Of a stretch of 64,000 nt of DNA, positions 1 to 2,547 are shown in pieces. The stretch is from assembly GCA_965116925.1 (NCBI GenBank), contig OZ220744.1, positions 4,800,001 through 4,864,000 of the forward strand. Direction: 5' to 3'. Each line of letters opens with the position of its first letter. Position 1 is the first letter of the stretch. Source of the stretch: Candidatus Poribacteria bacterium. GTDB lineage: Bacteria; Poribacteria; WGA-4E; PCPOR2b. The notes under the pieces were generated by a model. That model searched no databases. It had not been told where the DNA came from and saw only the letters and a list, made by a program, of their open reading frames with translations. The position numbers and the translations under genes were made by a program.

Positions 1-453
1 CCGTTCGATGCTGGCATCGCTGAAGACGCGCAGGGTACTTTCCCGTAATGTGAAGGGTATGGATAGACCAATTAGGAGATAGGTACATATCAAGAGTGCC
101 GTCCCGATATAAGGCATCGCTTCCTCAAAGTGTCGGAAGAAGCGGAGAATCGAAATTTTGACCAGAAGTAAAACGCCGATTGTGATGCCGAGCATCAGGT
201 GGGCGACGGTACGCGGTGGGAGCTCAACCTGATAATTCCACAGGCGAGGCACCATGTGCCACATCATGAAGATATAAAGGATCAGATACGCATAGCCGAT
301 AGCCCGGTGGACAAACATCAGCGATTTCGGTGCGGCACTGGTACGGGTTTCATGGTCGAAGGGATACCCCCACAGTTTATACATCAAAAACACGGAAGCA
401 TTCCCCAGACCGAGGAAAATCAACCCAAGTATTGTACTAGTTGCAGTTGACAT
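1..453 (-). CDS. Membrane cytochrome b-like protein, N-terminal 151 aa (continues beyond left edge; missing from ORF track)
   Basis: Manual translation from ATG at 453: MSTATSTILGLIFLGLGNASVFLMYKLWGYPFD...MFVHRAIGYAYLILYIFMMWHMVPRLW...TVAHLMLGITIGVLLLVKISILRFF; four hydrophobic helices with His in helices 2 and 3; AGGGGG RBS. Confidence 0.7.
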   Translation of the reverse strand, partial: MSTATSTILGLIFLGLGNASVFLMYKLWGYPFDHETRTSAAPKSLMFVHRAIGYAYLILYIFMMWHMVPRLWNYQVELPPRTVAHLMLGITIGVLLLVKISILRFFRHFEEAMPYIGTALLICTYLLIGLSIPFTLRESTLRVFSDASIER

Positions 454-517: not shown

Positions 518-1699
518 TCAGAACCAAAAATGCGACATCAGGATGAGCTGATCTGTACCCTCAAGTTGGCGGTCGGTGCTCGTTGTATCGCGCTCATCGT
601 TTGCGATGTTGAGCCAATAGAATAGCTCAAGGGAACCGTTTTCCATAAAGATATATTGCGCTGCAAGTGTCACACGTTGGCTTCCATCTCCTTTGACCGT
701 GCGATCTGGATCGAACAGTCCGTAACGTCCGGAGAGCGTAAGTTCCGGCATCACGCGATATTTCGCACCAAAATAGTAACCCTTGGAGGTGATGTCATCA
801 TCGCTGAAGCCGATACTCTCATCGTCGCCGTAACTGCCCCCAAAATTGAATTCGCCTTCAAGGGTGAGATTTTTGAGGGCGGCAGTCAAAAAAGCCCCAG
901 CAGTCATTTCACGATCTAGGTCTCTGTCTCTATCAAGGAGAAAGGAGACACCGCCTCGCAAGGGTCCAAGCGTAGTGCCGGCAGTTGCAGCCATCCCTTT
1001 ATGTTGGTTGCTATCTGCGGCCTGTCCAGCACTCCGATTTCCGTTGACCAGAGCGGCATTGTAAAATACCTTGCCGTAAGTACCACCGACCTCAACGCCG
1101 ACATCCCGTTTATGTGATCCGAGGTTATACCCTTGACGAACCAAGATATTGTGGTCTCTCTGTTTAAGGCCAAACGGAAGGCGGAATTGCCCCACTTTGA
1201 CGTAGAGGTGTTTGGGGATAGCATCAACCGTCGCAAACATGTTGAGAGTCGCACCCATATTGTTGGATAGGGTCAGTCTGAGTTTGTCCGATGCTTGTGC
1301 ATTGACGGTCAATTCGCCCTGCATCAGAAGGAAACTATCAACGGATGAATGGCATGAGGTACAGGTGGCTCTTGCGCGTCCTTCGAGATCGACATGGGTT
1401 GTTTTGATATACGCGGTACGGATGTTGACCGCTGTTGTGAGTCTTTGGCGCACCTCTTCCGCCTCTTTCATAATTGCTTCCGGATCGAAATCCTCCGGAA
1501 ATTCAAAGTAGTTATCTTCATAAACCTGCCCAATCGCATTGCGCGGTCCGCCGCCTGCCGGATCGAGATGGCAGAAGATACACTCTTTGTCTTCCATCGC
1601 TGCAAACTCCGGGCGCGCCATGCTATCAGAGACGAAAGAAAGCGTCAATAATGCGCTGAATAAAAAGACTAAAAATCCAAACTGAAACCTGTATATCAA
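518..1699 (-). CDS. Cyc2-like fused cytochrome c / outer-membrane beta-barrel with two CxxCH motifs
   Basis: Signal peptide ending SMA; ARPEFAAMEDKECIFCH (aa 28-44); second motif CTSCH (aa 113-117); porin-like KVGQFRLPFG and RDVGVEVGG; amphipathic strands; C-terminal HFWF; GAGGAGG RBS. Confidence 0.75.
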   Translation of the reverse strand: MIYRFQFGFLVFLFSALLTLSFVSDSMARPEFAAMEDKECIFCHLDPAGGGPRNAIGQVYEDNYFEFPEDFDPEAIMKEAEEVRQRLTTAVNIRTAYIKTTHVDLEGRARATCTSCHSSVDSFLLMQGELTVNAQASDKLRLTLSNNMGATLNMFATVDAIPKHLYVKVGQFRLPFGLKQRDHNILVRQGYNLGSHKRDVGVEVGGTYGKVFYNAALVNGNRSAGQAADSNQHKGMAATAGTTLGPLRGGVSFLLDRDRDLDREMTAGAFLTAALKNLTLEGEFNFGGSYGDDESIGFSDDDITSKGYYFGAKYRVMPELTLSGRYGLFDPDRTVKGDGSQRVTLAAQYIFMENGSLELFYWLNIANDERDTTSTDRQLEGTDQLILMSHFWF

Positions 1700-1764: not shown

Positions 1765-2547
1765 TTATTCGAGTGTTACGAACACAAAATCTGTAGCAGC
1801 AGCACCTGAGTGGCAACCTGTGCAGACCCCCCCTTCAAAAGCCAAGCGAAACTCTGCGTCTGGTGCGCCTCGCAAAAATTCCTCAAATCTCCAGTCTCCA
1901 AAAGCGGGATTACTTCCTGCTTCCTTCCACATCACTGCGACTAGTCCAATAAAGTCTTGATCCGGACGAGTTGCATCCTTCACGACAATCGAGCCGTCCG
2001 GATAAGGGAACTGCTGTTGACCATTCGGAGCAATTTCCGCACGTGTTTTGTTGACATAGACATTTTTCGTTCCGCGATGCGGGTCAAAGCCCGGCACCGG
2101 CGGAATCGGTTGCGCGTTTAACTTCAGCCACTGATCATACCCTGCTATATCCTCCGGCAGGCCTGGAAGGGCAGCCGGTGGTTCGGGTTCCGGTTGTGGC
2201 ATCGGTTCTACTCGCGGTGGTTCGGGTTGTGGCTGCGGCTGCTGGACAGGTGGTTCAGGCATCTGACCACCCGGCTGCGGTTGTGGTTGGGCAGGCGGTT
2301 GTGGCATCTGTTCACCCGGTTGCGGCTGTGGTTGGACAGGCGGTTGCGGCGTCTGCTCACCCGGTTGTGGCTGCTGTTGGGCGGGTGGTTGTGGAGTCTG
2401 TTCACCCGGCGACGGCTGTTGGGCGATGGGTGGCTCAGGTTTGACCACTTCCCCTTCATCTCCACAAGAAACGAAAATTATACAGGCAACAATAATAAGG
2501 TTCAAAATCAAGGGACCTAGATATTTTTGGATCATCTTTTTCTCCAT
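1765..2547 (-). CDS. Cytochrome P460-family lipoprotein with Pro/Gln-rich linker
   Basis: Lipobox FVSC; VYVN, YPDGSIVVKD, VMWK, GDWRFEEF, CTGCH, DFVF match the P460 / c'-beta fold pattern. Confidence 0.85.
   Translation of the reverse strand: MEKKMIQKYLGPLILNLIIVACIIFVSCGDEGEVVKPEPPIAQQPSPGEQTPQPPAQQQPQPGEQTPQPPVQPQPQPGEQMPQPPAQPQPQPGGQMPEPPVQQPQPQPEPPRVEPMPQPEPEPPAALPGLPEDIAGYDQWLKLNAQPIPPVPGFDPHRGTKNVYVNKTRAEIAPNGQQQFPYPDGSIVVKDATRPDQDFIGLVAVMWKEAGSNPAFGDWRFEEFLRGAPDAEFRLAFEGGVCTGCHSGAAATDFVFVTLE
2178..2440 (-). repeat. About five tandem 45-bp coding repeats (PPxQxQPQPGEQxPQ)
   Basis: Visible in both DNA and translation. Confidence 0.85.

Follow-up and report, generated by a model that had tools for sequence, protein, structure and literature searches.

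Cyc2 is the best-described cytochrome-porin fused into a single chain. Its definition, as given in the available part of bioRxiv 10.1101/228056, comprises a single CXXCH motif, an AXPXFAR[Q/K][T/Y] motif, a PXL about four residues past the CxxCH, and a 16-strand OprO/P-like barrel, and the accessible portions of PMC13741234 and PMC10734462 also term Cyc2 monohaem. No two-haem form of Cyc2 appears in the accessible portions of PMC10654088 and PMC5566968. In MtrAB-type complexes, a separate decahaem protein lies inside a 26-strand barrel (bioRxiv 10.1101/228056, available part). In these texts a fused cytochrome-porin has a single haem, so that the donor must enter the pore, and a longer wire calls for a multihaem protein as an extra subunit. 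None of the papers listed by our literature searches describes a two-haem or loop-haem cytochrome-porin.

The window analyzed here is a 64,000-nucleotide stretch of a Candidatus Poribacteria contig. On its minus strand, positions 518-1699 encode a protein of 393 amino acids with a TTG start codon and a C-terminal Phe, which we describe as a putative two-haem cytochrome-porin on the basis of the ORF, an AlphaFold2 model, and structural searches. Residues 1-27 (1619-1699, minus strand) form a likely Sec signal peptide with a hydrophobic segment at residues 1-20 and a cleavage site near Ala28 that was placed by eye. The start of a Cyc2-like N-terminal haem domain follows (1568-1618, minus strand; sequence and profile homology), where A28-x-P-x-F-A leads to C40xxC43H44, the putative haem site 1 of what is probably a periplasmic plug. 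A second motif, C113-T-S-C116-H117 (1349-1363, minus strand), lies in loop 1 (residues 101-121), which the model and conservation lead us to predict as extracellular, and is the putative haem site 2. Residues 87-393 (521-1441, minus strand) make up a 16-strand beta-barrel of the OprO/P-like type, as judged from the model and from structural and profile matches. The protein has exactly four cysteines, all of them in CIFCH (40-44) and CTSCH (113-117). The porin matched no Pfam or NCBIfam family above cut-off, and none of 25 relatives passed the Pfam cut-off. Its protein atlas matches are unnamed porin clusters, and a PDB sequence search with the close alignment gave 0 matches, while the deep alignment reached OprP at an E value of 0.004.

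The porin has much in common with Cyc2/Cyt572 proteins such as A. ferrooxidans Cyc2, Mariprofundus Cyc2PV-1, and Ghiorsea Cyc2TAG1_1. Shared features are a signal peptide (by hydropathy in the porin) with an N-terminal CxxCH soon after it, A-x-P-x-F-A with the CxxCH 12 residues on, a helix after the haem motif that ends in G-x-x-F/Y, and a 16-strand OprO/OprP-like barrel in the porin model. The 12-residue spacing from Ala28 to Cys40, which an earlier sequence-only reading of this DNA had likened to the Cyc2 signature, is the same as in that signature. That reading was also right that RQT and PxL are missing and that DPAGGGPRN stands after the first CxxCH. The stretch directly after this motif is CHLDPAGGGPRN; in place of R[QK][TY] and PxL, the Poribacteria protein has CHxxPxGGGxRN. 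It further differs from Cyc2 in its second CxxCH in loop 1, a shorter barrel, a P460-fold partner, and a host not known as an iron oxidizer.

These differences hold across the relatives. Neither AXPXFAR[Q/K][T/Y] before the CxxCH nor PXL past it was found in any of 121 close sequences or in any of the 114 full-length profile matches among the best 150 of 844. We built a surrogate Cyc2 profile from 56 complete proteins, drawn from at least 120 Cyc2-motif stretches and representing the FARQTG variant only. Every one of these 56 motif-defined proteins has one CxxCH, whereas the porin has two. With its restriction to the FARQTG variant, the surrogate profile scored the porin at E 1.8 and its one-haem relatives at 3.5e-8 at best; in the opposite direction, the family profile matched Cyc2 proteins with a best E of 7.7e-9. 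HHalign aligned the family (A2) and Cyc2 (A5) profiles at 97.1% (E 5e-11). The 140 aligned columns take in the haem domain and the first strands and pair loop 1 of the family with a motif-free Cyc2 loop. The profile of the close set alone (A1) gave 68% (E 4.8e-5). An NCBIfam search of three motif-defined Cyc2 proteins returned no match. The Cyc2-like build and shared ancestry, together with the absence of the published motifs, make the porin a homologue of Cyc2 and, by the published test, no member of it. The description of the porin as Cyc2-like therefore stands for architecture, barrel, and homology and fails for membership, for which both defining motifs are absent.

The same comparison bears on whether the porin could oxidize Fe(II) in the manner of Cyc2, with its extra haem giving access to chelated or solid iron, which we regard as quite unlikely. 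The architecture is the same, the haem domain is homologous, and loops L5, L6, and L8 are rich in acidic residues, but both Cyc2 motifs are absent and the surrogate profile (FARQTG variant) misses the protein. A porin match in 112 of the 112 other genomes of an order known as heterotrophs also counts against an iron oxidase. High CAZyme diversity is described for Poribacteria in the available part of PMC10367259. One vent Poribacteria genome scored for cyc2 clusters 2-3 according to the accessible text of PMC12482716, which may concern another family, and the function of Cyc2 cluster 3 is itself termed uncertain in the available part of bioRxiv 10.1101/228056. Nothing found points to Fe(II), which is probably not the specific substrate, and weak cyc2 profile matches in such genomes should not be read as iron oxidation.

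The second CxxCH is the feature that sets this porin apart, and it is strongly conserved. A sequence search with the porin gave 356 matches, and those with an organism name are from Candidatus Poribacteria. Both motifs are present in all 121 sequences made up of the query and the best 120 of these matches (62-93% identity). Searching 50% cluster representatives with a profile yielded 844 matches, the best 150 of which included 114 full-length proteins with the N-terminal CxxCH. Among those 114, 6 have the loop motif at 32-53% identity to the porin, 103 have one motif, and 5 have another second motif near the N-terminus; the loop motif is also found in fragments P0137, P0142, and P0146. In the distant two-haem proteins the loop sequence differs and can be longer by as many as 13 inserted residues, but the two Cys and the His are constant. 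A strict pattern picked up the motif at 39 of 40 loci from 37 genomes, where each of the three residues is encoded by both of its synonymous codons; the fortieth locus, which falls outside the strict pattern, was found to have two CxxCH when read. About 0.001 CxxCH would be expected by chance per 393 amino acids at the composition of this genome's ORFs. This low expectation, the 121 of 121 conservation, and the use of both codons while the surrounding loop varies indicate that the second CxxCH is not a chance occurrence. The conservation of C113, C116, and H117 that was put forward as a check thus extends through the close set to relatives with 32% identity.

Conservation of this kind also bears on whether the second motif could be free of haem, its cysteines forming a disulfide or holding a metal ion to stiffen the loop. 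Extracellular barrel loops often contain disulfides, and a haem-bearing loop would need to be carried across the outer membrane while the barrel folds. His117, however, is as invariant as the cysteines and would be needless for a disulfide, and Ccm acts on exported CxxCH with little context needed. We consider a haem-free loop very unlikely.

A quick tree of 130 rows placed all 22 loop-motif rows in one 25-row branch (SH-aLRT 95) together with three long-branch one-haem rows, a pattern that fits, but does not prove, one gain and two losses of the loop motif. The 3 one-haem rows among the 25 suggest that the second site can be lost. By sequence, the porin belongs to a two-haem branch within an unnamed family of Cyc2 homologues, most of whose members have one haem motif. 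The same family contains a second two-haem type on at least 2 branches (P0145, P0152, P0218, P0252, and P0261), with an extra Cx2-3CH at the extreme N-terminus followed by CxxxCxxCH. From their N-terminal place, both motifs of this type would be periplasmic.

The AlphaFold2 model, built haem-free for residues 28-393 from 147 sequences, has a pLDDT of 92.6 and a pTM of 0.89 and consists of a small helical N-terminal domain and 16 strands. Strand 1 spans residues 87-100 and strand 2 residues 122-135, so that CTSCH lies between the first two strands as predicted from the letters. The connections after even strands are turns of 2-4 residues, and the long loops (21, 26, 16, 14, and 18 residues) are among the connections after odd strands. 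Foldseek with the model returned general porins, and in a wide structural search OprP came first (2O4V, Z 24.2, rmsd 5.4, 295 aligned), with Omp38, Omp32, and chitoporin tied within 1 Z. The proposed beta-barrel is thus supported by a 16-strand model whose best structural match is OprP. The sequence-only reading would have fallen with a second motif that is unconserved or forms only a disulfide, or with a fold other than a barrel. None of these was observed, although a disulfide in place of haem keeps a small probability. In Cyc2-type barrels both ends are periplasmic, according to the accessible text of PMC13692758. If the porin keeps to this general rule for such barrels, loop 1 would be extracellular, and the second motif is predicted to point outward on the side of the long loops. 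The model accordingly places loop 1 outward, as the earlier reading had it; the two-haem wire of that reading would further need haem at both motifs and a short enough gap between them. The block with the second motif has a pLDDT of 72, with the lowest loop confidence near the motif.

We give about an even chance to the reading that the porin has a c-haem in its periplasmic plug and another on an outward loop, and likely serves as a single-chain electron conduit across the outer membrane. It draws on the retention of both motifs in 121 of 121 close sequences and in relatives of 32-53% identity with remodelled loops, and on the 16-strand model with its long odd loops on one side and its match to OprP, the template type for Cyc2 in the available part of bioRxiv 10.1101/228056. 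Further grounds are the profile homology to Cyc2, the ccmE- and ccmF-like genes, and redox neighbours in separate lineages. The proposed role would be that of MtrAB, MtoAB, and PioAB, with haems bridging the outer membrane in or across a barrel and with periplasmic and inner-membrane partners. The Poribacteria porin differs from these in having two putative haems on the barrel chain itself, a barrel of 16 strands, and neighbour genes with one or two CxxCH. Against the conduit reading, the gap between the haems may be too wide and the pLDDT near the motif is low. Strand 1 is 14 residues long, so that the two haems could be too distant unless loop 1 folds into the pore. The losable second site also counts against the reading, as do the ligand and neighbourhood results below.

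The search for haem ligands gave no His or Met conserved solely in the two-haem branch, which leaves haem 2 with no evident sixth ligand and weighs against a conduit. Two other residues stand out. Met126 in strand 2 (1322-1324, minus strand) and His183 in the D-H motif of loop 3 (1151-1153, minus strand) are both present in 121 of 121 close sequences (the query and the best 120 of 356 matches). Across the alignment columns of 130 rows they co-vary: both are present in 102 rows and absent from 26, 2 rows have His alone, and none has Met alone. Their correlation (r 0.95) is the best of 181 columns, the next being 0.63, and rests on 4-5 independent pairs (p 0.125). Since one-haem relatives keep Met126 and His183, the pair is not specific to haem 2; judged from the alignment, it may provide a ligand to haem 1 or else make up a metal site that lies between the two haems. 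Plain strand alternation would set Met126 on the outer face of the barrel, which, like the p value, counts against a part for the pair in a conduit. His390 was rejected as an essential ligand, being Arg in 7 of 121 sequences and variable in the distant two-haem forms. In a 19-row one-haem clade around P0168, P0176, and P0254, the D-H of loop 3 becomes D-D and Met126 is lost, which suggests a different pore site in that clade.

His183 aligns with Ser124 of OprP, a residue of the central phosphate site (PMC5877670, available part). The loop 3 motif aligns between the porin and OprP/OprO, its best fold match; the latter are haem-free, and the central site is Lys/Ser/Arg in OprP versus Asp-His in the Poribacteria porin. 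The alignment with a central binding residue, and the joint retention or loss of the Met/His pair, are what one would expect if the protein were mainly a solute or metal channel with Met126 and His183 as its binding site and with haems that gate it or set the redox state of its cargo, as in copper or iron uptake. The N-terminal domain probably plugs the pore, though, and no uptake genes were recognized next to the porin in the 20 loci read, and we hold such a channel to be very improbable indeed.

Directly upstream of the porin, on the same strand, lies a gene (1765-2547, minus strand) for a likely lipoprotein. The protein combines a lipoprotein-type Cys28 and a Pro/Gln tether of about 98 residues with a cytochrome P460/c'-beta domain that has a C-terminal CxxCH (residues 242-246). 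It matches PF16694 at 47 bits, with 7EAD and 6HIH as best sequence matches and 6HIU and 7EAD as weak fold matches to a moderate model (pLDDT 72.6). Its tether is long relative to the 22-84 residues in 112 length-limited homologues. The protein shares PF16694 and a Lys at the cross-link position with cytochrome P460/c'-beta and differs from it in an Ala for the catalytic carboxylate, a His for the Phe/Arg cap, the lipid anchor, and the long tether. Relative to Methylococcus c'-beta (McCP-beta), in 65 of 65 sequences each, there is Lys at the position of Phe61 (the cross-link site, Lys190 here), Ala at that of Gly82 (the carboxylate site of Gly82/Glu96/Asp102; Ala204), and His at that of Phe32 (the cap, His157). 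In the available part of PMC11928373, the carboxylate is present in active enzymes of the P460 fold, all solved members have Phe or Arg as the cap, and potentials range from -205 to -428 mV. Hydroxylamine oxidation by the partner was ruled out, as the distal carboxylate is missing. The lack of the carboxylate and the invariant His cap fit an electron carrier, and this His could bind the iron. Two further, weaker P460-like matches are present in the window's genome.

We surveyed 121 genomes of the Poribacteria phylum, 8 of them outside the window's order. Strong porin matches are present in the window's genome and in all 112 others of the order, one of them split over two contigs; the second motif was checked in 37 of these 113 genomes. 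The weak matches in 3 of the 8 genomes outside the order are all one-haem relatives. Of the 109 genomes having both genes, 93 have the P460-fold gene immediately before the porin gene on the same strand and 16 have it elsewhere; 4 of 113 genomes gave no match. Downstream, the window begins with part of a 375-amino-acid membrane protein (1-453, minus strand; the gene extends beyond the window and is whole at C1:4799326-4800453 of the same genome), with hydrophobic segments, several His, and two CxxCH. This unannotated protein weakly matches DUF6529, has several of its His within hydrophobic segments, and has two SorB-like c-haem domains. Among the 112 genomes of the order 106 have it, and among the 8 outside the order none. 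Since only 15 of 107 genomes have this third gene next to the others, we ruled out a fixed three-gene operon. That low adjacency, and a partner gene that is non-adjacent in 16 of 109 and unmatched in 4 of 113 genomes, count against the conduit reading.

The family extends to the Latescibacterota, where 27 of 168 genomes have a match: two motifs are present in 2 of these and one motif in 24, and the ORF read in the remaining genome has none. One of the two-haem copies (P0128) lies 61 bases ahead of a Rieske gene that is followed by a cytochrome b/c gene, and the second (L070) has a five-CxxCH cytochrome and a lipoprotein cytochrome upstream. Most of the one-haem copies have no cytochrome within 1.5 kb. 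These neighbours bear on whether haem 2 might instead be a five-coordinate catalytic or ligand-binding surface site for peroxide, NO, O2, or halide chemistry, with haem 1 and the partners moving electrons slowly or never. That the two-haem branch has no dedicated distal ligand would suit such a site, as would a gene that is core in the order and not patchy, and the partner belongs to a ligand-binding fold (PMC11928373, available part). The Latescibacterota copies, however, sit beside a Rieske/cytochrome b pair or a multihaem cytochrome with no P460, so that the shared theme is electron carriage, and we judge a surface site unlikely.

If the porin is a conduit, the genome's Ccm system would attach haem at both motifs after Sec export and ahead of barrel folding. 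The window's genome has ORFs that by motif resemble CcmE, CcmF, Rieske proteins, and haem-copper oxidase. At the outer mouth of the pore, either within it or above it, haem 2 would contact a redox partner from outside the cell, and electrons would cross to haem 1, possibly via the Met126/His183 site near the constriction. The tethered P460-fold lipoprotein would then shuttle between haem 1 and the inner-membrane cytochrome or a Rieske/cytochrome b complex, from which electrons could pass on to the quinone pool. The low potentials of solved P460-fold proteins incline us slightly toward outward flow. A fuller version, a three-centre wire in one barrel chain (loop haem, Met/His constriction site, and plug haem) with a His-capped bis-His P460-fold carrier as a core trait of the Poribacteria order, is possible but doubtful.

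New here are the co-varying Met126/His183 and the invariant His cap in the partner. If the conduit reading is right, a covalent haem on an outer loop would make a minimal single-chain conduit, possibly simple to transplant, and would offer a direct test of whether the barrel-assembly machinery can bring a haem-loaded loop to the surface. It would also give the Poribacteria, uncultured marine and sponge-associated heterotrophs, an order-wide and unrecognized extracellular redox route.

Several other features of these genomes deserve mention. The window's genome has a respiratory cluster at C1:418415-446047 with a Rieske protein, split cytochrome b-like genes, haem-copper oxidase subunits, an eight-CxxCH membrane protein of 1041 amino acids, and several two-haem proteins. 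At C1:5383968-5388487, a haem-free porin with a weak family profile match (E 2e-10) is followed by a lipoprotein and then a two-CxxCH protein, an arrangement that resembles imelysin/di-haem iron-uptake clusters. In one group of loci (family f3: L022, L027-L033, and L037-L039), a gene of more than 1200 codons comes after the porin gene; in L031, the only one tested, it encodes a bacterial alpha-2-macroglobulin. Contigs of four RNA runs from two studies span the porin, partner, and downstream genes; as they also fill all 30 bins of the next 20 kb, contig cover does not demonstrate transcription. The intergenic stretches that flank the porin and partner genes (about 2565-2660 and 455-515 of the window) have many partial contig matches, which suggests short repeated elements.
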